Part shown: in pieces, positions 1,742 to 35,379 of the stretch | How positions within the stretch are numbered: position 1 is the first letter of the stretch | How the letters are laid out: each line of letters opens with the position of its first letter | Assembly: GCA_017610325.1 (NCBI GenBank) | Contig: JAFCCF010000002.1 | Location: forward strand, 8,999 to 72,998 | Length of the DNA stretch: 64,000 nucleotides | DNA from: Candidatus Aminicenantes bacterium | GTDB lineage: Archaea; Nanobdellota; Nanobdellia; Woesearchaeales; JAFCCF01 | Reading direction: 5' to 3' | Position numbers and translations under genes: made by a program | Notes under the pieces: generated by a model | The model's database searches: none | Seen by the model: the letters and a program-made list of their open reading frames with translations, nothing else | Told to the model about the DNA's origin: nothing

Positions 1742-1841
1742 ATATGGTGAAATGTTATAAATCTTTTCCTATTTGCGAATACCATAACAAAGAATGAGAT
1801 TATCAATAACTTTTATAAACTTAATTTAATATCTAATTATT

Positions 1842-2387
1842 ATGAGACTCTTTATTGCTATTGAGGTTCCAGATGAGATAAGGGCTTATGCTGTTTCTTT
1901 GGCAGAGCCTTTGAAAGACAGCCCAGGCAGCATAAACTGGGTCAAGAAAGAGAACATGCACCTAACCCTAAAATTTCTTGGCGAGGTTGATGATGACAGT
2001 ACAGGCAAGATTACAGAAGCCCTGAAAGAAATTAAATTTGAGGATTTTGAGGCAAACACTGCTGAGCTTGGCGCGTTTCCAAGCATGGATTATATACGCG
2101 TGCTCTGGCTAGGCATTGAGCCACATGACAAAATCAACGCTTTACAGCAGCAGTTAGAACAGGTACTGCAGCCACTTGCCTTCAAGAAAGACAATAAGTT
2201 CCACCCTCATCTTACCCTGGCCCGGGTTAAGTTTCTGAAAGAAAAGCAACAGTTTACTGACAAGATTAAGCAGATTCAGGTTGAAAAAAAGCAGTTTAGT
2301 GTAAAAAAAATAAAATTAATAAAAAGTATCCTGACAAAGCAGGGGCCTATATACAGGACTATGTTTGAGTTTAACCTAAGTATTTAA
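1842..2387 (+). CDS. thpR: RNA 2',3'-cyclic phosphodiesterase / 2'-5' RNA ligase (2H phosphoesterase, LigT/ThpR)
   Basis: Two HxTx motifs (HLTLKFLG and HPHLTLARV); size about 180 aa. TATA-like cttttataaac lies about 30 nt upstream of the ATG. Confidence 0.85.
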   Translation: MRLFIAIEVPDEIRAYAVSLAEPLKDSPGSINWVKKENMHLTLKFLGEVDDDSTGKITEALKEIKFEDFEANTAELGAFPSMDYIRVLWLGIEPHDKINALQQQLEQVLQPLAFKKDNKFHPHLTLARVKFLKEKQQFTDKIKQIQVEKKQFSVKKIKLIKSILTKQGPIYRTMFEFNLSI

Positions 2388-2544
2388 ACTTCTTAAAAAC
2401 AGAAACCTTTATAAATCGCATAAAGTCTCCAACCTTTATAGCCTACGTGCAGGGGAAGGTGCTTTGTGCAGACCCTGTTCACGCTGCTGAGGCGATAAAA
2501 ATGCAGCTTAGCATTTTCTATCGTTGTTAATGGAGGTAATCAAT

Positions 2545-3144
2545 ATGACCGAAGAACAATTGCTGGTACCAACTAAGACTTACCTTAAGTCAGGTATACA
2601 TATCGGAACAAAGTTTCAGACAAAATACATGGAACAGTTTATCTACAAGACCAGGCCAGATGGGTTGTCGGTGCTTAACCTACAGAAGATAGATGAGAGG
2701 ATCCAGATTATGATAAACTTTCTTTCGCACTATGCCCCAGATGAAATACTTATCGTGAGCAGAAGAGAAAATGGTTGGAAGCCTGTCAAGCTACTGGCAG
2801 AGCTTACAGGCATAAAAGTGTATGCTGGAAGATACCCGCCAGGAATAATGACCAACCCAAACCTAAAACATTACACTGAGGTTAAGATATTGGTTGTCAC
2901 AGACAGCTGGGTTGACAGGAATGCTGTGAACGAAGCAATGAAGGTTGGAATCCCTGTTATTGCACTGTGCGACACAAACAACCAGGCAAACAATCTTGAC
3001 CTTATTGTACCATGTAATAATAAGGGAAAGAAGAGCCTTGGCCTGTTGTTCTACATACTAACAAAGAACTACCTGAAAAACAGGGGACTTATCGAAAAAG
3101 AGAGTGACTTCAAAAAGACAATTGGGGACTTCACAGAAGAATAA
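2545..3144 (+). CDS. rps2: 30S ribosomal protein uS2
   Basis: LLVPTKTYLKSGIHIGTKFQTKYM...RPDGLSVLNLQKIDERI is typical of archaeal S2. ATG 2545 is preceded by GGAGGT at 2532-2537; the track start at 2524 is a TTG extension. Confidence 0.9.
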   Translation: MTEEQLLVPTKTYLKSGIHIGTKFQTKYMEQFIYKTRPDGLSVLNLQKIDERIQIMINFLSHYAPDEILIVSRRENGWKPVKLLAELTGIKVYAGRYPPGIMTNPNLKHYTEVKILVVTDSWVDRNAVNEAMKVGIPVIALCDTNNQANNLDLIVPCNNKGKKSLGLLFYILTKNYLKNRGLIEKESDFKKTIGDFTEE

Positions 3145-3145
3145 T

Positions 3146-3826
3146 TTATTTTTCTTCTTCTTCTATTCCATTATTTACTATCCTAAATATAAACTCCTTC
3201 CCTTCTGGGATTGAGCGATGTTTTCTTATTATTGCTGCGCGTTTTGTCTTAAATTTCTTTAGCTCAATAAGGCATTTGCTGCTATACTTAATCACATCTC
3301 CACCAACTATCCTTACATCATCATTATTCTCCATCTTGGAATAGACCTGGCTGGTGACCAATATAGGTATATTATGTTTTCTGGTAATTTCTACAAGATT
3401 CGACAACTGCCCGCCAAAAATCCTGCTAACTTCATATATCTCCTTGTTCTTGCCAACCTCCAGCCTGTAGAAGGTTGAGATTGTATCTACAATGATTAAT
3501 CCAATCTTATCATTTACTGACTTCTTGAGCTTTGCAAAGGTATTGCGTTGCTCTAAGAACGAGGTAGGTTTTAGGAAAAGCACGTTCTTAAGTATGTCAT
3601 CATAATCATCGCAGATTTGTTTGAATCTGTCAATAGAATATGAACCCTCAGTATCAATATATATTACTTTTTTCCCGCTCTCAACCACTTTCTTAAGGCA
3701 TAACAAGCAGAAATTAGTCTTTCCGCTGCCAGCTGGACCATATATGGTGCTCACAGTATCATACTCATATCCGCCGTTCAAGAAATCATCAAAAGCATCT
3801 GAACCTGTTGAAATCCTGTTTCCCAT
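3146..3826 (-). CDS. radB: RadB-type RecA-family ATPase (DNA repair and recombination protein RadB)
   Basis: Short (226 aa) RecA core. Walker A GPAGSGKTNF, Walker B LIIVDTIS, N-terminus STGSDAFDDFLNGG. Confidence 0.8.
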   Translation of the reverse strand: MGNRISTGSDAFDDFLNGGYEYDTVSTIYGPAGSGKTNFCLLCLKKVVESGKKVIYIDTEGSYSIDRFKQICDDYDDILKNVLFLKPTSFLEQRNTFAKLKKSVNDKIGLIIVDTISTFYRLEVGKNKEIYEVSRIFGGQLSNLVEITRKHNIPILVTSQVYSKMENNDDVRIVGGDVIKYSSKCLIELKKFKTKRAAIIRKHRSIPEGKEFIFRIVNNGIEEEEK

Positions 3827-3845
3827 ACTAAGAAGAACAATTCAG

Positions 3846-3898
3846 GTATTTAAATACGTTTCTAAATTCTCTATAATTTTCTAAAACTATTTAAAGCA
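3846..3898. promoter_or_regulatory. divergent promoter region (two TATA boxes)
   Basis: Palindromic tatttaaata (3848-3857) lies about 26 nt from the radB ATG at 3826. aaaactatttaaagc (3884-3898) lies about 27 nt upstream of ATG 3918, implying near-leaderless transcripts. Confidence 0.5.
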
Positions 3899-3917
3899 AT
3901 ACAGTTTAGTTAGGTTT

Positions 3918-5426
3918 ATGAGAAAGGACCACATCAGGCTAATCCTAATCTCAATATTCTTAGTTACACTTATAATGCGGTTGTACTTCTCTTTCCAGAC
4001 CACCTATTTTAGTGAGGATCAGAGCTATTTCCTGATTAGGCAGGCAGAATATATAACCGAAAACAGCGTGCCAATGTTCTACGACTCGCTTAGCTATGGG
4101 GGTAGGCTTACAATTAGCACCCCACTTTATTACTATGTATTGGCATTTTTTAACCTATTCTTACCAATAACCCTTGTTGGAAAGCTCATTCCAAACATAT
4201 TTGCAGCATCGCTTGTCTTTATAGTGTACCTTCTGTCAAAACAGATATCAAAGAATGAGGAGGCAGCACTCTTTACAGCATTTATCTCAGGCTTTATACC
4301 CATCTTTCTTAAAATCACAATCAATAACATATCCTTATTTTCCTTAGTGATACCACTTACATTTCTCACCTTGTATTTTTTTATAAAATCAAGGGAAAAC
4401 AAGAATTACATTGTGTTTTATCTACTAAGCTTCTTGGCGCTTTGCCTGACCCATTCATCTACGTTCCTATTTATTGTAGCACTTATGCTTTATCTGTTCC
4501 TCTCATGGCTGGAGAAACAGAAAATAACAAAAGCAGAGGTTGAGATTACAATATTTTCGCTGTTCTTCTTGCTCTGGTCACAATTCCTTATATACAAAAA
4601 TGCATTCCTTGAGGAAGGGCCAGGAATTATATGGCAGAATATACCATCCCCAATCCTGAGCCAGTATTTTGCAAAGTTTAATCTGTTGTCTGCAATTGTA
4701 AGCATTGGCCTTATTCCGTTCCTGTTTGGAATTTACATAATATACAGGTACCTTTTCAAAACAAAGAATAAAGAGGTGCTTTTATTTGCGAGCTTTGCGC
4801 TCTCAGTTTTCCTACTGCTCTGGCTAAGGCTAATAGAGATTAATATTGGCCTTGCCTTCCTTGGCATTGTGCTTGTCATACTCTTTTCCTATTCTTATAA
4901 ATTGTTATTTTCATATACTGAGAAAACACGTTTCTCTAAAAAACTGGTCTTTTTTGTCCTAGTGTTTATCTTTATTATTGCCTCAATCATACCTTCTTTT
5001 GAGGTATCACGTAAGACCATCTCTGAAGCTTATACAGATGATGAGATAAGTGCTTTTGAGTGGCTGAGGAACAATACACCAGTTGATAGCACTGTTGTTG
5101 CAACTGTGCGAGAGGGTGGCCTCATCAACTATGTTGCAGAAAGGAGGAATGTCATAGATTCAAATTTCTTGTTTGCAAAGAATGCAGAAAGACGGTTAGA
5201 GGATGTAAAGCTTATCTACACAACCTTTTTGGAGACAGATGCAATCACGCACCTTAACAAGTACAATATAAGCTACATTGTGCTTTCAGACAGGGCAAGG
5301 GAACTCTACGACATCAGGGCTCTAAGCTACACTAGTGACACCAACTGCTTTGAACTTGTCTATAACAAGAGAACAAGAATATATAAATCAATTTGTAAGA
5401 AAGAGGAAATAAAAATTGAAATTTAA
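3918..5426 (+). CDS. polytopic GT-C-fold glycosyltransferase-like membrane protein (STT3/ArnT/PMT-like) with C-terminal soluble domain
   Basis: About 11 predicted TM helices; first-loop acidic motif FSEDQSYFLIRQAEYI. The roughly 150-aa C-terminal domain is non-membrane. No WWDYG motif seen. Confidence 0.55.
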   Translation: MRKDHIRLILISIFLVTLIMRLYFSFQTTYFSEDQSYFLIRQAEYITENSVPMFYDSLSYGGRLTISTPLYYYVLAFFNLFLPITLVGKLIPNIFAASLVFIVYLLSKQISKNEEAALFTAFISGFIPIFLKITINNISLFSLVIPLTFLTLYFFIKSRENKNYIVFYLLSFLALCLTHSSTFLFIVALMLYLFLSWLEKQKITKAEVEITIFSLFFLLWSQFLIYKNAFLEEGPGIIWQNIPSPILSQYFAKFNLLSAIVSIGLIPFLFGIYIIYRYLFKTKNKEVLLFASFALSVFLLLWLRLIEINIGLAFLGIVLVILFSYSYKLLFSYTEKTRFSKKLVFFVLVFIFIIASIIPSFEVSRKTISEAYTDDEISAFEWLRNNTPVDSTVVATVREGGLINYVAERRNVIDSNFLFAKNAERRLEDVKLIYTTFLETDAITHLNKYNISYIVLSDRARELYDIRALSYTSDTNCFELVYNKRTRIYKSICKKEEIKIEI

Positions 5427-6849
5427 ACTGTTCTTAATTACTGTATTTGTCACAGCTTTTTTACTAGTGTTGCCATATTCATTAAGAACCCTGGACGACA
5501 ATCCCTTATTTCCTGGCGAGGAAACCTATTACCATACCAGAATCGCAAGGCAGATTCTTGGGCACAACATCCAACAACCTGATGCCTTTGCATATGATGG
5601 AAGACCATATAATATAAACCCCTATCATTTCCTACTTGCAGGAGCAGGCGCAATTGTTGGGTTTAACAATGCCTCCACATTCTTACCGATTATTCTAGGT
5701 ATAGTTTCAACAATAATCCTCTTCTTAATACTTCAACAGTTTAAATTACATGTCAAGCTAAAAACCATAACTCTGCTCTTCTGGACGTTGTCTCCCATCT
5801 TTATATATACATTTACACTCTCTAATCCTTATTCTCTCCTTATCCCGCTTAATCTTCTTGGAGTCTATTTATTTATGAGAAAGGAAAAGGTTTCCTTTGT
5901 ACTCTCTGTAATTTGTTTTGCAATGATTCCCTTATTTGGTTTTTACCATGCAATAATCCCTATTATGGTATTGTTCTTCCTGTCCATCAAAAAGAAAAGC
6001 AGGCTCAAAAAATTTTACACCGTGCTTACAATAATCGCATTTATAGCAATTGTTTACAATGGTTACCTGTTGTTATCAGGGAACTATCTGCAAAACATCA
6101 GGCAGATTCAGCCAGATCTCATAAGGAATTCAATATCTGACCTCGGCGGCAAGATGGGGGTTGGAATATTTAATATTGCCCTATTGTTTATTGGTCTGTT
6201 AGTATTATGGGGGCATAGGAAAAAGTTTTACTCTGCTTACTATTCATTTATTATATTGGCGTTGCTCTACACATTTATTGATTTTAGTTTTATCATATAT
6301 CTTAACATAGTGGTCATTCTGATTGGTGCGTTTGGTTTTTATCATCTGCTCAAAAGGAGGTGGCAGCTGAAAATAATCAAGACACTTACACAACTATTGG
6401 TGATATGTGGGTTGCTATTCTCAACAGTTTCTTATATTGACAGAGTTGGTTCAATGGAACCAAACAATGAAATTGTTGACAGCCTTTTATGGCTTAAATC
6501 AAATTCAGATGAGGATGGTGTAATCCTAAGCCACGAGAGCAATGGTTTTTGGATAGAATACATCTCAGAGCGCATCACAATCTCAGATAGCATTACCAAA
6601 CATACGCCAGGAGCAAGAATCATCCAGAACCTGTCAGATGAAGTGTTTTACTCCAGAGATCTTGTAGAGACAACCTCGCTCTTACAAGGTTCAGGAGTTT
6701 CACATATCTGGGTTGATAGTAAAATGGGGTCCGGAGAGGTCTGGACAAAGAATAAGGAGGGTTTGCTTTTCCTCTTTAGAAACAGCGAAACATTTAAAAA
6801 GCCCTATAACTCGACCAATGTGAGGGTTTGGGAGTTTTTGAAAAGATGA
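5416..6849 (+). CDS. polytopic GT-C-fold glycosyltransferase-like membrane protein (second paralogue)
   Basis: TTG start overlaps the upstream stop by 11 nt. First-loop motif PGEETYYHTRIARQIL, multi-TM body, soluble C-terminal domain. Confidence 0.5.
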   Translation: MKFKLFLITVFVTAFLLVLPYSLRTLDDNPLFPGEETYYHTRIARQILGHNIQQPDAFAYDGRPYNINPYHFLLAGAGAIVGFNNASTFLPIILGIVSTIILFLILQQFKLHVKLKTITLLFWTLSPIFIYTFTLSNPYSLLIPLNLLGVYLFMRKEKVSFVLSVICFAMIPLFGFYHAIIPIMVLFFLSIKKKSRLKKFYTVLTIIAFIAIVYNGYLLLSGNYLQNIRQIQPDLIRNSISDLGGKMGVGIFNIALLFIGLLVLWGHRKKFYSAYYSFIILALLYTFIDFSFIIYLNIVVILIGAFGFYHLLKRRWQLKIIKTLTQLLVICGLLFSTVSYIDRVGSMEPNNEIVDSLLWLKSNSDEDGVILSHESNGFWIEYISERITISDSITKHTPGARIIQNLSDEVFYSRDLVETTSLLQGSGVSHIWVDSKMGSGEVWTKNKEGLLFLFRNSETFKKPYNSTNVRVWEFLKR

Positions 6850-6854
6850 TTTAG

Positions 6855-8141
6855 ATGAATACATTTATGGGCTTGTTATTATGGTTGATGTATCTCTTAT
6901 CTTTGTATGTAGGGGTATATTGGTTGATAGCGCTGATAGAGCATAAAAAAGACTTTTCTAAGAAAAAGCCTGAAAAGATCGCATTAAAAAAATACCCCTT
7001 CGTTTCAATCCTTATCCCTGTATTTAATGGGGGGAATTCAGTTGCCGGAACATTAAAGTCCGCAGCTAAGCTTGATTATCCTAAAGATAGATATGAAATA
7101 ATTCTTATTAATGACGGCTCAACTGATAACACTAAACAGGTGATTTTGGGTGAGATAAAAAACCACCAAAAACATAATATTAAACTAATCAATCAGTCAA
7201 ATCAGGGCAAGGCAGAGGCCATGAACAATGCGCTTAAGATTATCAAAGGAGAATTCTTCGCATGCCTTGATGCAGATTCATTTGTTGAAAAGTATGCGCT
7301 TAGGAACATGCTAGGGATCTTCGAACAAAATGATGACAAACTCACAATAGTGACTCCTGTTATGCAGGTGGTATCTCCAAAAAGCGTATTACAGTGGCTA
7401 CAGAAGATTGAGTATGTTGTATCGGTTTTTGTTGTCAGGATTATGAGCCACATTGACACGATTTATGTTGCTCCCGGGCCATTCAGCATTTACAGGGCAA
7501 AGGTTATCAAAAAACTTGGCGGCTTTGACGGCAGCACTGGTACTGAGGATCAGGAGATTGGCTATAGGGTACAGAAACACCATTTAAGGATAAAACAGTG
7601 TTCAGAAGCCATAGTGCAAACTGTTGCACCAAAAACCATAATTGCTCTTTATTGCCAGAGAAGGCGCTGGATGCATGGTTCATTACTAAATATAATTAAA
7701 TATAAAAAGCTTATCTTTAACAGGAACTATGGGGATTTTGGCATGTTCCAGGCGCCCCTGAATATGCTAATTTATTTTTTTAGCATATGTTCAATTACTT
7801 TTTTCGGTTACTTTGTTGTATGGCCTATTATCAAGCTTACTAAAAATCTTTTCCTGATAAGGTTCGACATAATGCCTTACCTAAAGAATTTCCTCGATGG
7901 TATATTTAAAACAAACTTTAAAATAATAAATCTCAGCGTGGGCAGGTTGTTTGTGTTTTTGCTGGTGATATCAATTAGTATTATACTTCTCTATCTTGCA
8001 TACCAGCATTCCCAAGACACACTAACAAAAACAAAAAAGCTTTATATCGTGCCTTATCTCTTCCTGTATTACCTATTCATCAGCTTTGTAGGGTTCAAAG
8101 CGATTTTTGATGTTATGCTTGGCAGGAAAATAAAATGGTGA
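6855..8141 (+). CDS. processive family-2 glycosyltransferase (beta-glycan synthase type) with C-terminal TM bundle
   Basis: Motifs: ILIPVFNG, INDGSTDNT, LDADS (DxD), GTEDQEIG (TED), QRRRW (QxxRW). TM helices flank the catalytic domain. Confidence 0.8.
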   Translation: MNTFMGLLLWLMYLLSLYVGVYWLIALIEHKKDFSKKKPEKIALKKYPFVSILIPVFNGGNSVAGTLKSAAKLDYPKDRYEIILINDGSTDNTKQVILGEIKNHQKHNIKLINQSNQGKAEAMNNALKIIKGEFFACLDADSFVEKYALRNMLGIFEQNDDKLTIVTPVMQVVSPKSVLQWLQKIEYVVSVFVVRIMSHIDTIYVAPGPFSIYRAKVIKKLGGFDGSTGTEDQEIGYRVQKHHLRIKQCSEAIVQTVAPKTIIALYCQRRRWMHGSLLNIIKYKKLIFNRNYGDFGMFQAPLNMLIYFFSICSITFFGYFVVWPIIKLTKNLFLIRFDIMPYLKNFLDGIFKTNFKIINLSVGRLFVFLLVISISIILLYLAYQHSQDTLTKTKKLYIVPYLFLYYLFISFVGFKAIFDVMLGRKIKW

Positions 8142-8836
8142 GTCACAGAAAAATTAGTTGGCACAGATATTTCATTGCAGCAGTTATTGCGCTTCTTATA
8201 TTTTCCCTAGGACTATCTCTTGGAATGATTATTGACAATGAACGTTTCAAGTGGATTATTACTCAGAATGAGAAGCAAGAGATTGATTATCGAAGTTTGC
8301 AGTTTCAGTACTTATACATTAACTCCGTGCTTGGTGATGATAATGAAACCTGCGCTGTTTTGCAAATCCAGCTAGAGGATACCCTCTCAGACCTAGGATA
8401 TAGTCTTGATAAACTACTTAATTTTCAGAAAGAGAGCAACCTTAACAAAGAAGAGTATGACCTTCTTCATAGGAGATATATAATAGACAATCTTGAGTAC
8501 TGGTTGTTTGCAAAGAAGACTAAGGACCTGTGCAACACAGACCTTGTTACTGTGTTGTATTTTTTCTCTGGTACTGAATGTGATATTTGCCCAGACCAAG
8601 GTGTGATTTTAACATATTTCAAAAGAAAATATGAAGAAAAACTCCTTATCTTTCCGATTGATGTTGACCTTGAGGAAGATGAGCCCATTATCAAGATTCT
8701 GAAAAGAAGATACAAGGTATATAATTATCCTACTATCATTGTAGAAGACAGTAAATTCGAGGGTGTTGTGCAAAAGAGTGACCTAGCAGAGATTATCTGC
8801 GACAATTTCAATGACCCAGCAAGCTGTCAAACCTAA
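8135..8836 (+). CDS. membrane-anchored thioredoxin-like protein (CxxC)
   Basis: N-terminal TM helix. FFSGTECDICPDQG carries a CxxC in a Trx-like strand-helix context. It overlaps the GT2 gene by 7 nt. Confidence 0.4.
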   Translation: MVSHRKISWHRYFIAAVIALLIFSLGLSLGMIIDNERFKWIITQNEKQEIDYRSLQFQYLYINSVLGDDNETCAVLQIQLEDTLSDLGYSLDKLLNFQKESNLNKEEYDLLHRRYIIDNLEYWLFAKKTKDLCNTDLVTVLYFFSGTECDICPDQGVILTYFKRKYEEKLLIFPIDVDLEEDEPIIKILKRRYKVYNYPTIIVEDSKFEGVVQKSDLAEIICDNFNDPASCQT

Positions 8837-8868
8837 AATCAAAACATTTTTATTGGATTATTAATAAC

Positions 8869-11361
8869 ATGTCTTGTATGGACGTGAAGAACTTTTTTGA
8901 GAAAAATAAGGGACTTTGTATTCTAATCTTTATATTTGCGCTCATTAAACTTATAATTTTGCCCAAGCTAAATTTTTTGTATTGGGATGAAGCAGTTTAT
9001 CTTTCAATTGGAAAATATATCTATTCTGCTGGTAGTTCTGGGTTTTTTGAGATTATCAGGCCGCTTGGCCTGCCGCTAGTGCTTGGATGGTTCTGGCTGC
9101 TCAAGCTTGATTATATCCTATTTTCAAAGATTTTCATGATAATTATCTCATTAGGGTACATTTTAACAGCATACTTCTTGTCAGCTAAGCTTTTTAACAA
9201 GAAAATAGGAATATTAACAGTCACCCTACTCATTGTAACTCCCGTGTTCTTCGGTTTCAGCAGCCTTATACTTACTGGAGTGCCAGCTGCCATGTTTATC
9301 CTTTTGGCAATCTACTTTTTTATGCAAAAAAATAATTTGTTCCTGTCCGGATTATTCACCGCACTTGCATTCTTATTCAGGTTTCCTGCAGGACTTGTAC
9401 TGGTTGTTGTTTGCGCAGGCCTTATCCTACAGTATATTCAGGAAAAGAAGAAACAAATTCTCCAGCTCGCTAAGAGAAACGCAATTTATGTTGGTTCATT
9501 TGTCTTGTTTACGCTTCCGTACATTATTTTTAACTATATCAAATACCATAATGTAACAAGCGAGCTTAACCATGCCCTATTTAGGCCCTGGATAATGGGC
9601 ATATGGCACCAGGGCAATCCAGCTGGCTGGGTTGGTTCAGGATTATCTAGTGTGCTTTACTACCCAATACAACTTTTCCTGCAGAACATATTTTTCATTT
9701 TTGTTATTGTTGCAATTGTATTCTGGATAAAGAACAAAAATTACAGGAATTACAGATTTAACACAATACTAATTGCGCTGGTGCTCTTCCTGGTATACTT
9801 CTCATACATCTCAAATAAACAGATAAGGTTTAGTATTTTGTTCCTACCATTCCTTGCAATGCTTTCAGCTTATGGCGTGCTTGAGCTGTACAAGCTGGCA
9901 AAGAAGAGGTTTAGGAAAGATACAGTTAAAACAATTATTATTATCCTCTGCTTTGCACAGTTTTTGGCAGTAACAAACATATTTATTGGCAACAGCATTG
10001 GGCATGTCTTGACAAGGCCAAGACCAATGGCTTACCCTGCGCTTACAGAGTTCTTTGAATCAAACAGTATTATGGGCGATGTGATGGCAACAGAGCCAAT
10101 TGCATCAGCATATATTGATAACAGGTTTATCCCAAACTTTTATTCCTATGACACGCTTATTGGCGACTTCAGCTCTAATAGATCTGCGATGTACCTAATT
10201 CACTATCCTGAAGGAATTTGGTGCCCGGAGTATAACTTCCAGTGCTTTACAGACAGAAAACGCGTTACTCAATATTTTATGCAAGAGTACAACCTTGTGT
10301 TTTTTGATAATGAAACTGAGCTATATGTGTTTAGCAAGAACTTTTCACTGCCTCCATTGAACATGGAACAGTTGCAGAAGACAAGGGCAGACCTGGTTAC
10401 AAATCCTAATGCAGTTGATTCCGTGGTTGTTTTTAGAATAGAAAATGCAGGAAGCCTTTTCAGGGAAGATAAAAAGGGCAACATCTGGCAGCGTGACAAA
10501 TTCGAGAAGCTAAATTCCATCTTTGAAGATACAAAAGTTACATGGAGCATAATACCTGCAGATATTGAGGGCTTGAATGAAAAGAGCAGACACTATCTCC
10601 GGGAATATGTGGCAAATCACAGCATCAACATTGCGCAGAAGGGTTATGAGCACAAGGACAATGGATTCGGGAGCGAATTCAGGGGACTGCCTCACTCAAA
10701 GCAGATGGATAAGATTATCCAGGGAAGGATTGTGCTCGAGAATGAGTTTGGCAAGGAAATTACACTTTTCATACCTCCGTTTAATTCAGCAGATGAAAAC
10801 ACATTGCGCATCTTGGATGCTCTAGATTATGCAGTTTATTCATCTACTCCCGGAGATCAGCTTTTTGTGACAGATAGAAACATCAACAGGTATGACCAGT
10901 TGATACCATTCACAGACTGGCAAAAGGGCGGTAACCTTGATTTTGATACACTCAAGGCTCAGTTTGATTCATTCAATAAATTCAAAGATTATATAATCAT
11001 AACAATTGAATACTATATGTTATCTGATGAAGATTTTGAAACCATTGAAAGGTTTCTGGGGTATGTACAATCCAAAAATATTATTGTTATGGACCTTAAG
11101 GGGCTGGACAGATGGTATAGGTTCAGGGAGAGCGTGGATTTTTCAATAGATAACCAGGTTGTAAACATTTACCCCCCTGAGAGCGAGTTCGATGACTATC
11201 TTACACTTGGTTTTTACGTGCCCAGCAACTTCACAATCAGCTCAACTCTTGAAACAGTTAAAATTATTAGCTTCAATGAAGCAGAGATTAATGTGTGCCT
11301 CAACAGCAAATGTTATAAACTTGAACCAAACATATTAAGGAAAATTGAAATCACTGAATGA
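8869..11361 (+). CDS. fusion protein: GT-C (ArnT/PMT_2-like) glycosyltransferase + C-terminal polysaccharide-deacetylase-like (DUF2334-like) domain
   Basis: N-terminal half is polytopic with the LYWDEAVYLSIGKYIYS loop motif. The C-terminal half (WSIIPADIEG...NIAQKGYEHKDNGFGSEF...LFIPPFNSADENTLRIL) resembles DUF2334/NodB-like deacetylases from memory. Confidence 0.55.
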   Translation: MSCMDVKNFFEKNKGLCILIFIFALIKLIILPKLNFLYWDEAVYLSIGKYIYSAGSSGFFEIIRPLGLPLVLGWFWLLKLDYILFSKIFMIIISLGYILTAYFLSAKLFNKKIGILTVTLLIVTPVFFGFSSLILTGVPAAMFILLAIYFFMQKNNLFLSGLFTALAFLFRFPAGLVLVVVCAGLILQYIQEKKKQILQLAKRNAIYVGSFVLFTLPYIIFNYIKYHNVTSELNHALFRPWIMGIWHQGNPAGWVGSGLSSVLYYPIQLFLQNIFFIFVIVAIVFWIKNKNYRNYRFNTILIALVLFLVYFSYISNKQIRFSILFLPFLAMLSAYGVLELYKLAKKRFRKDTVKTIIIILCFAQFLAVTNIFIGNSIGHVLTRPRPMAYPALTEFFESNSIMGDVMATEPIASAYIDNRFIPNFYSYDTLIGDFSSNRSAMYLIHYPEGIWCPEYNFQCFTDRKRVTQYFMQEYNLVFFDNETELYVFSKNFSLPPLNMEQLQKTRADLVTNPNAVDSVVVFRIENAGSLFREDKKGNIWQRDKFEKLNSIFEDTKVTWSIIPADIEGLNEKSRHYLREYVANHSINIAQKGYEHKDNGFGSEFRGLPHSKQMDKIIQGRIVLENEFGKEITLFIPPFNSADENTLRILDALDYAVYSSTPGDQLFVTDRNINRYDQLIPFTDWQKGGNLDFDTLKAQFDSFNKFKDYIIITIEYYMLSDEDFETIERFLGYVQSKNIIVMDLKGLDRWYRFRESVDFSIDNQVVNIYPPESEFDDYLTLGFYVPSNFTISSTLETVKIISFNEAEINVCLNSKCYKLEPNILRKIEITE

Positions 11362-12757
11362 AAAAAAAGAGATATTTGTAATTATTCTGCTTTCAATTCT
11401 AGTTAGACTTGTGTTTTCTGTTAAACAGTTTGCACTTACATGGGATTCTGCAGTGTATCTTGGCATGGCAAAGTATATTTTTTCCCTAGGCAATCTTGGA
11501 TTATGGGAGCCGATAAGGCCTGTTGTGTGGCCATTCCTGCTTGGCATTTTCTGGAAATCGGGTTTGGATGCAGTAGCTTTTGGACGATTGCTTGAGATAA
11601 CACTTAGCATTGCCTCAATCTACCTGCTCTTCAAAATTTGCGAGAAAATATTTGACAAGAACATTGCGCTTATTGCATCATTCTTCTTCTCATTCTCACT
11701 CACATTCCTGGAACTTGAGTTTAACTTGCAGACCGGAATCCTGGCAACATTCCTTATTCTGCTGTCAATTTACCTTTTCCTCAGACAGAAAATTTTCCTG
11801 GCAGGCCTTTTTGCAGGCCTGGCATTTCTCACAAAGTTCTACTATGGTGTATTCATAATTATACTGTTAGTATTCATGATAAAGCAAGTCAGCATCAAGA
11901 ATTACAAGAACTTGTTGCTTGGATTTGGCATACCATTGCTTCCATACCTGATTGCCAATACATTCCTGTATAAGAATCCTTTTTTTCCTTTTATCTCTGC
12001 GAATTATGTTATAAATCATGTTATTGCATGTAATTTCCTAAACCCCCAACCCTGGTATTACTTTTTCCAGAGAATATTTATCGAAAATCCACTGAATATC
12101 ATTGCGCTTCTTGGTGTGGTGCTATTATTAAAAAAGCCAAAACTTGACAGGATATTTTTTCTCAGCTTGTTTGTCCTGCCGCTTGCATATTTAACAACAC
12201 TCTCATGCAAGACACCAAGGTATCTTTTGCTGATTTTGCCCTTCCTGCTGCCATTGACTGCACTAGGAATTGACTTTATCATGGACAAGCTAAAGAAAAA
12301 CCTTCGCTTGCTTTTCCTTTTAATCATAATCATATTTGCAGCAGCTTATCCGTTTTATATTCTGTTCAAGGTCCCTGTTCCAGAAGAAAATCTGGACTAC
12401 TACAACCATTTTAAAGGGATTGAGCCAGACAAGTTAGTGCTGACAAATAATCCTAAACTGGCATTGTACACAGACAACAAGCTTGAGCTCTTGTACTATC
12501 CGCTGTACAATTCATCAAAGGCAGAATATTACTCAGATGATGTTGTTGACAAAAAGCGCGATTATGTGTTTATTGATACTTGCTATGGTGATATGATCTG
12601 CAAGCCAGGTGACTTGGTTTGCATTAATGCGACAAATAATCTGATGCAGGTATTAAAAGACAATTATGAAACTGTTTATTATGCTAACCATACTGTGTGC
12701 GAATACTTTATCTTTTCCTACAAATCAGAACATAGTGAGGATACAGGGGATGTTTAA
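11345..12757 (+). CDS. GT-C (ArnT/PMT_2-like) glycosyltransferase, fourth paralogue
   Basis: Loop motif LTWDSAVYLGMAKYIFS is paralogous to WDEAVY in the upstream gene. Multi-TM with a soluble C-terminus. The TTG start lies in the same aaaattgaaat junction seen at 5416. Confidence 0.6.
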   Translation: MKSLNEKKEIFVIILLSILVRLVFSVKQFALTWDSAVYLGMAKYIFSLGNLGLWEPIRPVVWPFLLGIFWKSGLDAVAFGRLLEITLSIASIYLLFKICEKIFDKNIALIASFFFSFSLTFLELEFNLQTGILATFLILLSIYLFLRQKIFLAGLFAGLAFLTKFYYGVFIIILLVFMIKQVSIKNYKNLLLGFGIPLLPYLIANTFLYKNPFFPFISANYVINHVIACNFLNPQPWYYFFQRIFIENPLNIIALLGVVLLLKKPKLDRIFFLSLFVLPLAYLTTLSCKTPRYLLLILPFLLPLTALGIDFIMDKLKKNLRLLFLLIIIIFAAAYPFYILFKVPVPEENLDYYNHFKGIEPDKLVLTNNPKLALYTDNKLELLYYPLYNSSKAEYYSDDVVDKKRDYVFIDTCYGDMICKPGDLVCINATNNLMQVLKDNYETVYYANHTVCEYFIFSYKSEHSEDTGDV

Positions 12758-13316
12758 TCTCTCTGAACCCAACATCAAAGCCAACTTTTTCCAGTTTTTT
12801 CTTAAGATTCTTTGAACTCTGGAAATAATAATCTCCTGGGTTCATTATTAAATCCCCTAAATAGTTTAGCCAGAACTTTATGGCTGGTTTTTTATCAATC
12901 TCCTTGATTATCAGGACATTTGTCTTGTCAAATCTTTTGTAGCATTTATGGAAAAATATTTTTTGCTGTTCAAGCGGAACATGGTGTAAGAGGTCAACAG
13001 CTAGCAGGATTTGGTTCTTTTTTATTGCAACTGTTTCCAGCAGGCTGGCAACCTTGAACCTTATGTTTGGAAGCTTCCATATCTTTTTTGCAAGCTTTAT
13101 GCGCTCGTCATCAATGTCAAATCCGGTGACTATTCTACCTTTCATGCAAAGATATGCTGATGTCAGGCCATAACTGCAGCCAATCTCTACAATATTTCCT
13201 TTTGGTATAATCTTTTCAATGTTGCTAAATGGAAAAATCAATGATTTTAGAAATACATAGAGTTTTAGCTTAAAGCTGGGCATGTTGTGCAGCATAATTC
13301 TCTCTGTTTTGTCCAT
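12708..13316 (-). CDS. class I SAM-dependent methyltransferase
   Basis: Motif I VEIGCSYGLTSAY; acidic loop GFDIDDERI; 202 aa. Convergent with and overlapping the 3' end of the upstream GT-C gene. Confidence 0.65.
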   Translation of the reverse strand: MDKTERIMLHNMPSFKLKLYVFLKSLIFPFSNIEKIIPKGNIVEIGCSYGLTSAYLCMKGRIVTGFDIDDERIKLAKKIWKLPNIRFKVASLLETVAIKKNQILLAVDLLHHVPLEQQKIFFHKCYKRFDKTNVLIIKEIDKKPAIKFWLNYLGDLIMNPGDYYFQSSKNLKKKLEKVGFDVGFREIKHPLYPHYVLICRKR

Positions 13317-13334
13317 TAATCACTGAAATAATCC

Positions 13335-13348
13335 AAAACTATATAAAT
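13335..13348 (+). promoter_or_regulatory. TATA box for the UbiA-family gene
   Basis: aaaactatataaat is centred about 28 nt upstream of ATG 13370. Confidence 0.5.
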
Positions 13349-13369
13349 TTTTATTGCTGACAACAGAAT

Positions 13370-14197
13370 ATGCGCTATATTAGGATACTTAGACCGCAGC
13401 AATGGTACAAGAATCTTGTTGTCTTCCTTGCACTTGTTTATTCAGGTAACCTGTTAAATCTTAGCCTGTTCCAGGGCACTGTGCTTGGATTTGTCAGTCT
13501 GTGTCTAATCTCATCTTCAGGATATATTCTTAATGATGTGCTTGACAGGAGATATGATAAGAGGCACCCAGAAAAATCAAAAACGCCGATTGCAAGCGGC
13601 GAGATTAGTGTTATAAATGCAGTGCTGTATGCGGCTACGCTGCTGGTTATTGGATTAGTGCTTGCATTTTACCTTAACCTGTACTTTTTATCTTCTATGG
13701 TGCTATTGTTTGTCCTGACACTGCTTTACTCGATATTCATCAAGCATATTGCATTTCTTGACATACTTGTGATTGCAATAAATTTTGTGATAAGAGCGGT
13801 GAGCGGAGCATACCTCATAAATGTTTATATATCTCCCTGGCTCATCATGTGTCCATTTTTTCTTTCATTGTTCCTATCAGCTGGCAAGAGAAGAGCAGAG
13901 TCTTTGTTTGCATCTAGGTTCAAGCCAGTGCTTAAAGCATACACCAAAGAGATAACATCTACCCTTATAGTAATAACCGCAACAATTCTAATATTAACCT
14001 ATACCCTCTACACGATGAGCGTCAACGAAACCCTCATGTTCACGCTTCCGATTGTACTGTATGGAATATTCCTGTACCTTGGCTTTATATTCAAGAATGA
14101 AAAGGTTGCCAGATATCCTTTCCTTGTATTCAAAGATTATAGAATGATAACCATAATTGTCTTCTGGATTATTATCACTGTTTTGGTTCTATACTAA
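13370..14197 (+). CDS. UbiA-superfamily prenyltransferase, decaprenyl-phosphate 5-phosphoribosyltransferase-like subfamily
   Basis: LRPQQWYKNLVVF near the N-terminus and NDVLDRRYDKRHPEKSKTPIASGEIS mirror the Rv3806c-type motifs RP.QW.KN and ND..D...D..HP.K..RPIA.G. About 8 TM helices. Confidence 0.65.
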   Translation: MRYIRILRPQQWYKNLVVFLALVYSGNLLNLSLFQGTVLGFVSLCLISSSGYILNDVLDRRYDKRHPEKSKTPIASGEISVINAVLYAATLLVIGLVLAFYLNLYFLSSMVLLFVLTLLYSIFIKHIAFLDILVIAINFVIRAVSGAYLINVYISPWLIMCPFFLSLFLSAGKRRAESLFASRFKPVLKAYTKEITSTLIVITATILILTYTLYTMSVNETLMFTLPIVLYGIFLYLGFIFKNEKVARYPFLVFKDYRMITIIVFWIIITVLVLY

Positions 14198-14668
14198 TTA
14201 TCCTTTTCTAACCTTGATAAGATCACCAATAGTAAGCGCCTCGCCCTTACCCTTTGTAGCCTCTACAGCTTCTTCTTTATGCATCTCCACCAGCGTTATT
14301 TTAAAGAATTTTTCCAGTTTCCTGGCAAGTTCAATGTTTGGCTCAAAATGTCCCCTCTCAATATTATGCAACAGGCTTTCTTTTACTGCAAGCTTTTTTG
14401 CAGCATCTTCCTGTTTCAGACCCACCTTTTCCCTGCCTGTTTTTATTCTTCCTGGGTAATCTGAAACGACCAGTTGTACAATCTTAGGTCCAGATACAGC
14501 TTTTATCTCTTGTTTTTCAAGTTTCTTTTTTTTCTTTGCAGGCAGTTTAATCTTCACCTTTTCTATTACCTTACCCATCTTGCTACAGCCAGGGCACACA
14601 CTAAGTTCAGTACCTTCAATCTCTACCTTTACAGTTGCATCTTTTGAACCACATATGCTACATAAGAT
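14198..14668 (-). CDS. mbf1: archaeal multiprotein bridging factor 1 (aMBF1): N-terminal zinc ribbon + XRE-type HTH
   Basis: HTH region is GREKVGLKQEDAAKKLAVKESLLHNIERGHFEPNIELARKLEKFF. The zinc ribbon CSIC...CPGC requires extension upstream of the track GTG (14599). The in-frame region up to the stop at 14707-14705 has no ATG/GTG/TTG, so the start is placed at ATC 14668-14666 behind a GGGTGG SD-like box. The 5' end is uncertain. Confidence 0.75.
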   Translation of the reverse strand: MLCSICGSKDATVKVEIEGTELSVCPGCSKMGKVIEKVKIKLPAKKKKKLEKQEIKAVSGPKIVQLVVSDYPGRIKTGREKVGLKQEDAAKKLAVKESLLHNIERGHFEPNIELARKLEKFFKITLVEMHKEEAVEATKGKGEALTIGDLIKVRKG

Positions 14669-14775
14669 ATTCCCACCCAGGTTAAGGTATAGGAACTGGA
14701 ATATTTATATCTTTCGATATAATGGGAAACTTGCTGTAGCCCAAGAGATAATACAACCTGAGAAAAACCAGAGAG

Positions 14776-15186
14776 TTAACCTTTGATAATTGTCACAGTT
14801 ATTGTTCTTTCACTTCTTGGCCCATCAAATTCGCATAACATTATAGACTGCCACCTGCCAAGCTGTAGCTTGCTGTTTTTTACGGGGATTGTCTCGCTTG
14901 GACCTATAATTGCTGCTTTGATATGTGAATCTGCATTACCATCAACCTGATCATGCCTCCATTTTCCCTGGGGAATCAGCTTTGCGAGCATATCATTAAT
15001 GTCAAGGCAGATATTCGGGTCATAATTCTCATTTATAACAATTGCGGCAGTTGCATGCTGCACAAATATACTGCATAACCCTTCTTTTACACCTGAGTTT
15101 GTTACAATCTCTTCTACCTTGCGGTTTATATCAATTATCTCCATACGCTGAGATGTGTTTATTGTGAATGTGTGCTGCATAAACAA
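14776..15186 (-). CDS. YjbQ/UPF0047-family protein (secondary thiamine-phosphate synthase-like)
   Basis: Supporting segments: GLCSIFVQHATAAIVINENYDPNI, GNADSHIKAAIIGPSETIPV, LQLGRWQSIMLCEFDGPR. Confidence 0.8.
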   Translation of the reverse strand: MFMQHTFTINTSQRMEIIDINRKVEEIVTNSGVKEGLCSIFVQHATAAIVINENYDPNICLDINDMLAKLIPQGKWRHDQVDGNADSHIKAAIIGPSETIPVKNSKLQLGRWQSIMLCEFDGPRSERTITVTIIKG

Positions 15187-15283
15187 TAGATAGCCCTAGA
15201 TATTTATATATATTTCGCAATAACTTCAATTTGGTTCAAAGTTTAGTTAATTATTTATATATTAAGTTTGATTACTTAGTGTT

Positions 15284-15916
15284 ATGACAGAAGAATCATT
15301 TATGTTGGTGTCTCTGAAAGAGAGCAAGGCGAAAAAGCTGGCAGAGGTAATAGGTAATGATACCTGCAGGAAGATACTTGATTTTCTGGCGTCAAAAAAA
15401 TCTGCAACAGAGACAGAGATATCAAAAGATCTTAATATCCCTATATCTACTGTACACTACAACCTAAAACATCTTCTCGAAAATAAACTGGTTAAAGCAG
15501 ATGAATACCATTACAGTAAGAAAGGTAAGGAAGTGAACCATTATTCGCTGACAAACAAACTAATCATAATTGCCCCAAGCAGGAAAGGGAAATTCATGGA
15601 TAAACTAAAATCCATATTACCAATCTCATTAATAGCGGTATTTGGTGCCGGAATAATCCATTTTATGTCTATATTTAAGTCAGGAGGCACATTTGCCGCT
15701 ATGGGTATACAAAGGTCAGCCAGCGAAAAAATGCTGGCAGCAGCACCCGCAGTAATGGGCGAGGCAGCAGATGCTGCAATTGCAACCACGACCACACTCC
15801 AACAAATAATTGTACAGCCAGTTGTGCAGCAGTCAAACCTCGCTTTGTGGTTCTTGTTCGGAGCAGCATTTACAATAGTGCTCTTCCTGCTTATTGAATT
15901 GTTTAGAAAACGATAA
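15284..15916 (+). CDS. ArsR-like winged-helix protein with C-terminal membrane anchors
   Basis: N-terminal wHTH (CRKILDFLASKKSATETEISKDLNIPISTVHYNLKHLLENKLV) followed by two hydrophobic segments. Confidence 0.6.
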   Translation: MTEESFMLVSLKESKAKKLAEVIGNDTCRKILDFLASKKSATETEISKDLNIPISTVHYNLKHLLENKLVKADEYHYSKKGKEVNHYSLTNKLIIIAPSRKGKFMDKLKSILPISLIAVFGAGIIHFMSIFKSGGTFAAMGIQRSASEKMLAAAPAVMGEAADAAIATTTTLQQIIVQPVVQQSNLALWFLFGAAFTIVLFLLIELFRKR

Positions 15917-25631: not shown

Positions 25632-25723
25632 GGCGATAGGGGGGAATTGAACCCCCTCCTAGGGATTTCTGCAGTCAAAATCACTGCCACAGTCCCTCAT
25701 TCTACCATTAAACTACTACCGCC
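25632..25723 (-). tRNA. tRNA-His (GUG) with encoded G-1 and a 20-nt canonical (37/38) intron
   Basis: G-1 + GCGGTAG/CTATCGC acceptor (one G-U) + C73. D arm is GTTT-AATGGTA-GAAT. Anticodon stem is AGGGA/TCCCT with loop CTGTGG|intron CAGTGATTTTGACTGCAGAA|A. T arm is GGGGG-TTCAATT-CCCCC. Confidence 0.9.
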
Positions 25724-34831: not shown

Positions 34832-35379
34832 GTTTCAGAAAACAGGTTTTTGACTTTTACAGGGCTGTTGTGAGTGAGAAAAGCCTGAAGATTATACTGG
34901 TGGTTGTTTTTGTGCTCTTCATCTTTCTGCTTCTGAAAAATGTTTTTATTATACTACTATTGCTTGTGATTGGAGCAATCTCCCTTTTACACAATATTTT
35001 CACCAGAAATACAATTGGTTTTGAATTATGCATATTTGCAACTGTATTTTGTGCAATTAATTTTGGCGCTGGTGCAGGCATATTTGTGGGAATATTTTCA
35101 GTTTTAATTGGTTTTATGTTGAGTGGGAATGTTGATGAGGGAATACTGCTCATATTAATTGTATTTATATTAATAGGATTCTTTGCATCAATGTTCAGCT
35201 TTGAGAATATCTTTATAGTTGGTCTGGTCGCAACAATTGTTTATGATATTATTATTGTTGGATTCTACATATTAATGGGTTCAAGTCCAATTAAAAATAT
35301 AAGCTATTTCTTGACACATGTTTTGTTGAACTACTATATATTCAAATATCTGCCAGCAGTGTTTGCAGGTATAATATAA
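34828..35379 (+). CDS. polytopic membrane protein, unknown function
   Basis: ATGA overlap with leuS; 5-6 hydrophobic helices. Confidence 0.5.
   Translation: MSFRKQVFDFYRAVVSEKSLKIILVVVFVLFIFLLLKNVFIILLLLVIGAISLLHNIFTRNTIGFELCIFATVFCAINFGAGAGIFVGIFSVLIGFMLSGNVDEGILLILIVFILIGFFASMFSFENIFIVGLVATIVYDIIIVGFYILMGSSPIKNISYFLTHVLLNYYIFKYLPAVFAGII

Follow-up and report, generated by a model that had tools for sequence, protein, structure and literature searches.

A conserved archaeal gene cassette that may assemble a cell-envelope glycan around a lipid-linked pentofuranose donor

A 64-kb stretch of contig JAFCCF010000002.1 (termed here the window; positions are counted on its forward strand from its first nucleotide) carries, at 3918-14197, eight tightly packed genes that encode a UbiA-superfamily protein, four polytopic glycosyltransferases of the GT-C class (A to D), a family 2 glycosyltransferase (GT2), a CxxC protein and a methyltransferase. 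We propose, with a probability of about 0.6, that this cassette represents a cell-envelope glycan operon conserved in DPANN archaea (Woesearchaeota/Nanoarchaeota) and built around a lipid-linked pentofuranose donor. The window is archaeal, since it encodes archaeal RNase P RNA and archaeal signal recognition particle (SRP) RNA. An earlier reading of the letters alone (the original prediction) had suggested a GT-C pathway fed by a lipid-phosphate-linked pentose, with the four GT-C genes arising by duplication of a two-gene unit. The donor system gains indirect support from sequence, structure models and comparative genomics, whereas the two-gene duplication does not stand.

All of the open reading frames (ORFs) were found where the original prediction had placed them, and every peptide motif that it quoted was present in the translations. 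The genes are, in order (aa, amino acids; EL2, external loop 2; SAM, S-adenosylmethionine):

3918-5426, + strand: GT-C A, a short STT3/AglB-like glycosyltransferase that has neither WWDYG nor the DxD/E motif of EL2, 502 aa
5416-6849, + strand: GT-C B, tandem paralog of A, 477 aa
6855-8141, + strand: membrane-integrated, processive-type GT2 synthase (PgaC/IcaA/BcsA-like), 428 aa
8135-8836, + strand: membrane-anchored CxxC protein with a thioredoxin fold, 233 aa
8869-11361, + strand: GT-C C, a D-type GT-C domain plus a C-terminal extension with a DUF2334/CE4-like domain, 830 aa
11345-12757, + strand: GT-C D, an ALG12/PIG-M/ArnT-like glycosyltransferase and conserved partner of the UbiA gene, 470 aa
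12708-13316, - strand: SAM-dependent methyltransferase of class I, 202 aa, its gene convergent with D and divergent from UbiA
13370-14197, + strand: UbiA-superfamily polyprenyl-phosphate 5-phosphoribosyltransferase (PPPRS; or DPPRS, the decaprenyl-phosphate enzyme, Rv3806c type), family assigned by sequence, 275 aa

Seven of the eight genes are thus on the + strand, the methyltransferase gene being the only one on the - strand. Overlaps occur between A and B (11 nt), between the GT2 and CxxC genes (7 nt) and between C and D (17 nt), while B is separated from the GT2 gene by 5 nt and the CxxC gene from C by 32 nt.

Family assignment of the UbiA protein

All of the sequence tests applied place the UbiA protein with the DPPRS/PPPRS clade, although its best score lies below the trusted cut-off of the DPPRS model. 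It contains the motifs RPQQWYKN and NDVLDRRYDKRHPEKSKTPIASG and matched Pfam PF01040 with 89.6 bits (cut-off 34.2). The top model was NCBIfam DPPRS (NF008977) with 192.4 bits, and the three DPPRS models scored 192, 148 and 113 bits, compared with 60 bits for the best model of any other UbiA subfamily and 34-39 bits for models of digeranylgeranylglyceryl phosphate (DGGGP) synthase. A 482-residue UbiA model, PRK08238, gave 155 bits, aligned only over the C-terminal part of the model (positions 195-439). For all 26 DPANN relatives that were aligned, a DPPRS model was best, more than 130 bits above other UbiA subfamilies (best E 9e-72). The best match among solved structures was Rv3806c itself (PDB 8j8j; E 2.2e-25), versus 2.6e-7 for AfUbiA and 8.8e-5 for DGGGP synthase. 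The original prediction, which had grouped the protein with DPPRS and apart from DGGGP, heme O and quinone prenyltransferases, therefore agrees with both the model scores and the structural match.

The structure paper on Rv3806c identifies the ligands of phosphoribosyl pyrophosphate (PRPP) and Mg, and reports that other UbiA enzymes do not share the residues binding phosphoribose (PMC10994848). We mapped these ligands, i.e., N73 and D77 for Mg, R22, K87, R90, Y138 and K143 for pyrophosphate, and K28, Y70 and Y157 for the 5-phosphate of PRPP, onto 84 DPANN homologs. The window protein keeps 9 of 11 PRPP/Mg ligands. Equivalents of R22, K28, Y70, N73, D77 and Y138 were invariant in the 84 homologs and those of K87 and K143 nearly so, and all are present in the window. 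The 5-phosphate ligands K28, Y70 and Y157 correspond to K14, Y52 and F139, with K, Y and F at these positions in all 84 homologs; the residue at the Y157 position is F in some mycobacteria too. Six of the seven Mg/pyrophosphate ligands are kept (N55, D59, R8, K69, Y120 and K125), the exception being R90, replaced by T72. The position of Q135 is T or S in the 84 homologs (T117 in the window).

That the protein might instead be an ordinary prenyltransferase, either an ether-lipid DGGGP synthase or one of the quinone/heme type, misread as DPPRS-like, is suggested by its membership of PF01040, by weak matches to DGGGPS, UbiA, CyoE and ChlG models, and by a DPPRS score below the trusted cut-off. 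We consider this very improbable: no other model exceeded 60 bits as against 192 for DPPRS, the relatives were best matched by DPPRS in 26 cases out of 26, the Rv3806c-specific ligands of the 5-phosphate are retained, and a phosphatase gene of the PAP2 family adjoins UbiA in relatives. Database names of the homologs are divided, some being called "decaprenyl-phosphate phosphoribosyltransferase" by NCBI, with "4-hydroxybenzoate polyprenyltransferase" used by JGI, and the one DPANN paper found to mention a UbiA gene treats its product as an ether-lipid or quinone prenyltransferase. Homologs with 41-61% identity came from metagenome-assembled genomes named Woesearchaeota, Nanoarchaeota and Nanoarchaeia, with a few from Altiarchaeota or Methanobacteriota, and at least 457 species-representative genomes contain a relative of this protein.

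Gene neighborhoods of UbiA in DPANN relatives

Neighbors encoded within 7 kb of UbiA were clustered for 83 species-level loci (given below by our L numbers), and the cassette was syntenic in about 11-13 species-level relatives. In L001, the closest relative, whose UbiA protein is 61% identical to that of the window, the order A-B-GT2-thioredoxin-C-D-UbiA is found between the same housekeeping genes, but the methyltransferase gene is missing. Cassettes of the form A-B-GT2-thioredoxin-(C)/D-UbiA were present in L001, L022, L033, L035, L063, L068, L073, L076 and L084 (UbiA identity 41-61%), and reduced forms, i.e., GT2-(thioredoxin)-D-(methyltransferase)-UbiA, in L009, L017, L030, L036, L041 and L048. 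D-type GT-C genes lay within 7 kb of UbiA in 26 of the 83 loci, with a median gap of 376 bp and often abutting or overlapping it, and a GT-C gene of any type did so in 41 of them; in the window, the end of D is 613 bp upstream of UbiA. Cassette-linked UbiA proteins fell into more than one group of a neighbor-joining tree, which was rough, carried no support values and was used qualitatively only.

The PAP2 phosphatase gene (158 aa) was directly downstream of UbiA in 11 loci, at a median distance of 11 bp; six of these are cassette loci (L035, L041, L048, L063, L073 and L076), where it begins 0-96 bp downstream. By analogy, this arrangement recalls the pairing of Rv3806c with Rv3807c in mycobacteria, and of the evidence from gene context it speaks most strongly for a phosphoribosyl-lipid product. 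The original prediction had made its case depend on synteny, and relatives do show a conserved cassette, in some of them with PAP2 next to UbiA.

The same neighborhoods bear on an alternative that we consider unlikely, in which adjacency reflects operonic packaging only, the GT-Cs using dolichyl phosphate (Dol-P)-hexose or dolichyl diphosphate (Dol-PP)-glycan while the UbiA product serves another purpose or a transferase encoded elsewhere. D is nearest to the Dol-P-Man-dependent ALG12, ALG9 and PIG-M, as well as to ArnT; A and B resemble STT3, a user of Dol-PP-oligosaccharide; UbiA in the window is transcribed separately because the methyltransferase gene is inverted; and there is no GT-C gene within 7 kb of UbiA in about half of the DPANN loci. 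However, a D-type gene directly adjoins or overlaps UbiA in many otherwise dissimilar loci, which belong to several UbiA sub-clades of the rough tree. In addition, no Dol-P-hexose synthase (a short GT2 of the DPM1/GtrB type) is present in the window cassette, and all known uses of the DPPRS product are as a precursor of GT-C donors (PMC11127046).

Two further kinds of UbiA neighborhood were observed. The second recurrent type, in L007, L018, L021, L049, L074, L045, L026, L006 and L010 (about 6 kb to either side of position 10001), encodes an FAD amine-oxidoreductase-type protein (PRK07233/HpnE-like), two epimerase-like proteins of the short-chain dehydrogenase/reductase (SDR) family, paired EamA/SMR proteins of ~120 aa with ArnE and ArnF as their best NCBIfam models, and a 602-aa GT-C (hhalign, 99% to the A family), sometimes together with STT3 and PAP2. 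Judging from the predicted proteins, this neighborhood has the appearance of an entire pathway for lipid-linked pentose in which epimerization would be carried out by enzymes non-homologous to DprE1/E2. ArnE/ArnF-like pairs were found beside UbiA in 15 other DPANN loci, and canonical STT3 genes in 11. The third type, in L003, L012, L015, L023, L028, L031, L044, L061, L064 and L083, contains genes for DUF362 proteins, which occur in 25 loci at a median of 160 bp from UbiA, for an FAD oxidoreductase and for B12-binding radical SAM enzymes.

The glycosyltransferases and accompanying proteins

The original prediction had assigned all four polytopic proteins to the GT-C class. C and D passed the Pfam cut-offs for GT22/PMT_2, structure models, which were made of A and D, matched GT-C structures only, and hhalign linked A with B and A with D; B and C were assigned by sequence and profile. 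The class assignment therefore holds, with the refinement that A and B are specifically STT3-like rather than generic GT-Cs. Just beyond the first transmembrane helix, the four proteins have the acidic first-loop motifs EDQSYF (A), GEETYYH (B), WDEAVY (C) and WDSAVY (D), and the segments FSEDQSYF, FPGEETYY and TWDSAVY fall in the same hhalign columns.

The remote homology of C and D required family profiles and structure models, since single-sequence searches of the PDB with C, D or the C-terminal half of C gave no match. D scored 39.1 bits with Pfam PMT_2 (cut-off 26.1), and C scored 29.5 bits with Glyco_transf_22 (cut-off 23.8) and 25.5 bits with PMT_2. A hidden Markov model (HMM) of the D-type proteins encoded beside DPANN UbiA genes gave 426 bits for D, 393 for C, 59 for A (E 4e-18) and 26 for B (E 4e-8). 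The AlphaFold model of D (pLDDT 88.5, pTM 0.90) was searched with Foldseek, and the top 33 matches were all GT-Cs (STT3, ALG12, ALG9, ArnT, AglB, PglB, AftB, PimE and Emb). TM scores were 0.61/0.60 for ALG12 and 0.67/0.59 for ArnT, with AftB and Emb as weaker matches, and the family profile of D was nearest to GPI mannosyltransferase I (GPI-MT-I) and ALG12 (E 1e-5). In C, the D-type domain occupies about residues 1-470, and DUF2334 follows at residues 555-660 (nt about 10531-10848) with 28.7 bits, just above its cut-off of 26. C occurs in this long form, with DUF2334, in a few loci only, namely the window, L001, L005 and L068.

Sequence comparison indicates that A and B are short STT3-like GT-Cs, not canonical oligosaccharyltransferases. 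A had no Pfam match, and its NCBIfam match to the Chlor_Arch_YYY C-terminal domain (25 bits) was superseded by the match to STT3. With the AlphaFold model of A (pLDDT 89.7, pTM 0.88), Foldseek returned GT-C structures only, led by STT3 (E 1e-14; TM score by query 0.74-0.77) and followed by AglB, PglB and DPY19; the C-terminal domain of A matched the globular domain of AglB-S2 (3vu0). The A family profile matched STT3 sequences with E 1.4e-8. B scored 18.5 bits with PMT_2, under the cut-off, and was linked to the A family by hhalign (probability 98.5%, E 1.5e-15, 439 columns, with GEETYYH aligned to EDQSYF), while the A and D families were linked at 97.3%.

A, and B by homology, thus share with STT3/AglB/PglB the fold, the D-x-Y-F-x-x-R motif of external loop 1 (EL1), where EFDPYFNYRT of STT3A aligns with SEDQSYFLIRQ of A, the C-terminal globular domain and a G-x-x-I...R-x-x-x-x-D-x-N segment. 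They differ in being only about 500 aa long and in two defining motifs. WWDYG is absent from A, where SWWDYGYQI of STT3A aligns with TVREGGLIN (family consensus slkeGslI), and from B, which has ESNGFWIEY at that position. The A family also has no acidic residue in place of the EL2 DxD/DxE motif, SYDNE of STT3A being aligned with "n.Svsvys". It is the replacement of WWDYG and the absence of the EL2 motif that exclude A and B from the canonical oligosaccharyltransferases. These losses also bear on a second alternative, which appears quite unlikely, i.e., that the cassette serves N- or O-glycosylation of S-layer or other surface proteins, with A and B as a heteromeric oligosaccharyltransferase and with the GT2, D and C building a lipid-linked glycan. 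The STT3 fold of A, its AglB-like C-terminal globular domain, its EL1 D-x-Y-F motif and the canonical STT3 genes that adjoin UbiA in the 11 other DPANN loci would all fit such a role. By contrast, both of the missing motifs define oligosaccharyltransferases, and the QRRRW motif and C-terminal transmembrane architecture of the GT2 are those of a self-exporting synthase, not of a GT2 acting on lipid-linked glycans.

The paralogy of the four genes does not follow the pattern of a duplicated two-gene unit that the original prediction had proposed. In BLASTP comparisons, A resembled B (22% identity over 422 aa, E 2e-13) and C resembled D (32% over 217 aa, E 9e-27), while the A-C and B-D comparisons were not significant. 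Most relatives have A and B together with a single D-type gene. This pairing and gene content, and a shared junction limited to the window and L001, rule out that model; from sequence, there were two independent tandem duplications, an old one giving A/B and a lineage-restricted one giving C/D. The junction itself is as described in the original prediction: the 11-mer AAAATTGAAAT occurs only at 5412 (5412-5422) and 11341 (11341-11351), with the TTG start of the downstream gene inside it, and the upstream proteins end in the similar tails KIEI* and KIEITE*. Statistically the repeat is weak, with 0.38 copies expected and two or more copies in 3 of 100 shuffles. The combination of a AAAATTGA[A/T]AT junction with a KIEI/KIDI tail was found in the window and L001 only, the near-copies in L001 being AAAATTGATAT and TAATTGAAAT, at about 2670-2685 and about 8612-8625. 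All other relatives have ATGA-type overlaps or ATG starts at these junctions, and the shared junction may be a lineage-specific context for translational coupling.

The GT2 is, on sequence criteria, a membrane synthase of the self-exporting type, as its designation as a processive synthase in the original prediction implied. It matched Pfam Glycos_transf_2 (98.7 bits) and Glyco_tranf_2_3 (96.7 bits), its residues 18-348 aligned with residues 111-457 of BcsA (4hg6), and it has the D, DAD (LDADS), TED (GTEDQE) and QRRRW motifs with hydrophobic helices on both sides. It aligned end to end with the PgaC_IcaA model (TIGR03937) at 165 bits, well under the 422-bit equivalog cut-off, and this match does not set its sugar specificity. 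The synthase systems for poly-N-acetylglucosamine (PgaC/IcaA with the deacetylases PgaB/IcaB) and cellulose (BcsA) share with the cassette the D, DxD, TED and QxxRW motifs and flanking transmembrane helices of the GT2, and also an extracytoplasmic domain resembling the CE4 superfamily (DUF2334), which is here part of C. They differ in that the cassette has no PgaD, PgaA or BcsB, in the score of the GT2 (165 versus 422 bits), and in the deacetylase-like domain, which is here fused to a GT-C and confined to the sub-lineage of the window. A JGI metagenome contig (3300033388; L085) that is 99.9% identical to 1664-15478 of the window has 72 nt missing inside the GT2 gene (window 7295-7366; junction at 5625-5640 of L085), and an in-frame TAG just past the DAD motif splits the synthase. 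The deletion may reflect a knockout variant that exists in nature or else an artifact of assembly. The window proteins are also encoded on a 98-kb NCBI contig.

The 233-aa CxxC protein, already recognized as membrane-anchored in the original prediction, could be identified further as a thioredoxin. Pfam and NCBIfam gave no match to this transmembrane-anchored protein with its CDIC motif; a profile of 12 orthologs matched PDB thioredoxins with E 2.5e-7. In the orthologs C149 and C152 (C149xxC152), C73 and C133 are invariant and a Y-P-T cis-Pro loop is conserved, and the gene is kept in 12-13 cassette loci. The A family (C477, C493) and the D family (C419, C426) each also have a Cys pair, invariant or nearly so, in the C-terminal domain outside the membrane. 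These pairs would be natural substrates of the thioredoxin, and the sequences suggest dedicated disulfide formation.

The methyltransferase matched Methyltransf_25 (34.4 bits) and Methyltransf_23 (28 bits) of Pfam. Besides the window and the near-identical L085, a methyltransferase gene lies in the same orientation between the D-type gene and UbiA in L005, L009, L011, L017, L030 and L036. Among cassette loci, the methyltransferase (the window and the last six loci) and PAP2 never occurred together, a pattern that may reflect either the clades concerned or two functional alternatives.

The G+C content of the genes at 3918-14197 (0.36-0.39) equals that of their flanks, and their neighbors are housekeeping genes (rpS2, a RadA/KaiC-like ATPase gene, a downstream HTH_3 gene, ScpB and GyrA), as are the remaining long ORFs of the 64 kb, most of which were scanned. 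Given this composition and these flanks, the genes do not form a compositional island, and horizontal acquisition is unsupported, the housekeeping context also being shared with L001. Elsewhere in the window, a trans-polyprenyl diphosphate synthase is encoded 12.6 kb downstream (26825-27913; 218 bits), which indicates some isoprenoid capacity in the organism, and a 745-aa protein with an fn3 domain (53217-55454) is possibly a surface protein and a target of glycosylation. An ORF of 191 aa with an rve-family integrase core (35952-36527) adjoins the SRP RNA gene and is possibly an insertion sequence or transposase remnant amid otherwise housekeeping genes. The tRNA finders disagreed: Aragorn reported a 93-nt "tRNA-His (atg)" at 35208-35300 (+ strand) that was not listed by Rfam, and missed a 91-nt tRNA that Rfam placed at 25632-25722 (- strand). 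Both are longer than usual and may be intron-containing archaeal tRNAs.

A proposed pathway and its relation to known systems

In the pathway that we propose, the UbiA-type enzyme (13370-14197) would act at the cytoplasmic face of the membrane and form polyprenyl-P-ribose-5-P from PRPP and polyprenyl-P, its family being assigned and its activity predicted. The 5'-phosphate would then be removed, by the PAP2 enzyme encoded downstream in several relatives and here by an enzyme encoded outside the window, and the resulting polyprenyl-phosphate-ribofuranose would be carried across the membrane by a flippase. Outside the membrane, D and its paralog C, the latter bringing its extra DUF2334 deacetylase-like domain, would use this donor; their fold is established, and the donor is suggested by conserved adjacency. 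In the least certain step, the acceptor would be the polymer, possibly based on GlcNAc, exported by the PgaC/BcsA-type GT2, i.e., a decoration after polymerization comparable to that of bacterial O-antigen side chains and mycobacterial arabinogalactan. The old tandem pair A/B, having lost the sequon-binding WWDYG, probably transfers glycan to a non-canonical acceptor, and the membrane-anchored thioredoxin probably introduces the disulfide bonds that are conserved in their extracytoplasmic domains and in those of the other GT-Cs.

In mycobacteria, the locus Rv3805c-Rv3808c encodes the DPPRS Rv3806c, the PAP2 phosphatase Rv3807c and also the GT2 GlfT2, in a pathway with DprE1/E2 and with AftA-D/Emb as GT-Cs. 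The cassette has in common with this decaprenylphosphoryl-ribose/arabinose (DPR/DPA) pathway a UbiA-type phosphoribosyltransferase with the PRPP and Mg ligands, PAP2 adjoining it in relatives, and the combination of GT-C transferases with a GT2 polymerase in one locus. It differs in its archaeal host, in its carrier, presumably a dolichol-type lipid, in having no DprE1/E2 homolog and no phosphatase in the window, in its GT-Cs, which are ALG/PIG-M/ArnT-like and STT3-like and not of GT53, GT85 or GT89, and in its GT2, a membrane-embedded synthase and not a GlfT2-type enzyme.

A second comparison is with bacterial three-component systems, in which a PPPRS, a flippase and a GT-C add alpha-pentofuranose side chains to polysaccharides after their polymerization (Kelly et al. 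2024; PMC11127046). SDR epimerases that convert the lipid-linked ribose are optional, and the survey covered bacteria and one phage; in Citrobacter youngae, ORF15 is a PRP-PPPRS, ORF14 a MATE flippase and ORF12 a GT-C of family GT136 (PMC11127046). The logic of PPPRS plus GT-C for extracytoplasmic, post-polymerization addition of ribofuranose, with optional SDR epimerases, is the same, and the 155 bits of the window UbiA protein on the C-terminal part of PRK08238 are a further likeness. Unlike those systems, the cassette lacks a fused HAD phosphatase, a MATE flippase and any GT-C of the GT136 type with a carbohydrate-binding module; it has four GT-Cs where they have one, and it adds a synthase-type GT2 and a thioredoxin. 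The linkage of PPPRS and GT-C is present in the window; a phosphatase and a flippase were sought there and not found, so that the cassette resembles the three-component and DPR/DPA systems and is not a full member of the three-component class as seen in the window.

Several observations weigh against the proposed pathway. The DPPRS score of the UbiA protein is under the 234-bit trusted cut-off of the model, and at the position of R90, which is R in 80 of the 84 homologs and K in 3, the window alone has T (T72, nt 13583-13585). The mutation R90A in Rv3806c caused a loss of 77% of activity (PMC10994848). The inverted methyltransferase gene splits UbiA from the A-D operon, and the 99.9% identical contig with its truncated GT2 gene suggests that the synthase may be dispensable. 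The donor and acceptor of the GT-Cs are not readable from sequence, and the nearest structural relatives of D use Dol-P-Man or undecaprenyl phosphate-4-amino-4-deoxyarabinose (Und-P-Ara4N), not a pentofuranose. Searches of the 64-kb window with HMMs built from the neighbors of DPANN UbiA genes, combined with Pfam scans of most long ORFs, revealed no PAP2 or HAD phosphatase, no flippase (small EamA/SMR, MATE or GtrA), no epimerase (DprE1/E2-like, SDR or FAD oxidoreductase candidate) and no PRPP synthase.

The same searches found no canonical STT3 in the window. Epimerase candidates were likewise absent near UbiA in all cassette-type relatives, which extends to these loci the lack of an epimerase that the original prediction had reported for the window. 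With no epimerase beside the cassette, ribofuranose is the simplest choice of sugar, although epimerase genes may lie elsewhere in the genome.

A wider and more tentative reading, which we think rather unlikely, takes the at least 457 species-level DPANN genomes together and has PRPP-derived polyprenyl-phospho-pentofuranose donors made throughout the group, by a pathway in two forms, the cassette and a fuller, epimerizing module. In the first form, a synthase-made envelope polysaccharide would be decorated with ribofuranose by dedicated GT-Cs and handled by the WWD-less STT3-like enzymes, as an archaeal analog of arabinogalactan assembly. The second would combine PPPRS, PAP2, an FAD oxidoreductase, two SDRs, an ArnE/F-like flippase pair and a GT-C/STT3, converting lipid-linked ribose to arabino- or xylofuranose as a DprE1/E2 analog made up of non-homologous enzymes.

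In the literature, searched for DPPRS or Rv3806c together with archaea and for UbiA together with DPANN, we came across no account of an archaeal system of this kind. By analogy, the proposed pathway is an archaeal variant of the bacterial PPPRS plus GT-C pentofuranose systems, with predicted activity, and it suggests that a cell-wall sugar pathway previously known only from bacteria also exists in archaea. PRPP-derived lipid-linked pentofuranose donors underlie the mycobacterial arabinan pathway, the target of ethambutol and benzothiazinones, and it was only in 2024 that bacteria were recognized to use such donors generally in the decoration of their surface glycans. The cassette supplies testable enzymes in its UbiA protein, its D-type GT-C and its two STT3-like proteins without WWD, and these two are also relevant to how oligosaccharyltransferases evolve new acceptor specificities. 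If the proposal is correct, the glycan donors of archaea would extend beyond Dol-P-hexoses and Dol-PP-oligosaccharides, and furanose-containing envelope polymers would be predicted in uncultivated, episymbiotic DPANN lineages, whose surfaces mediate attachment to their hosts.

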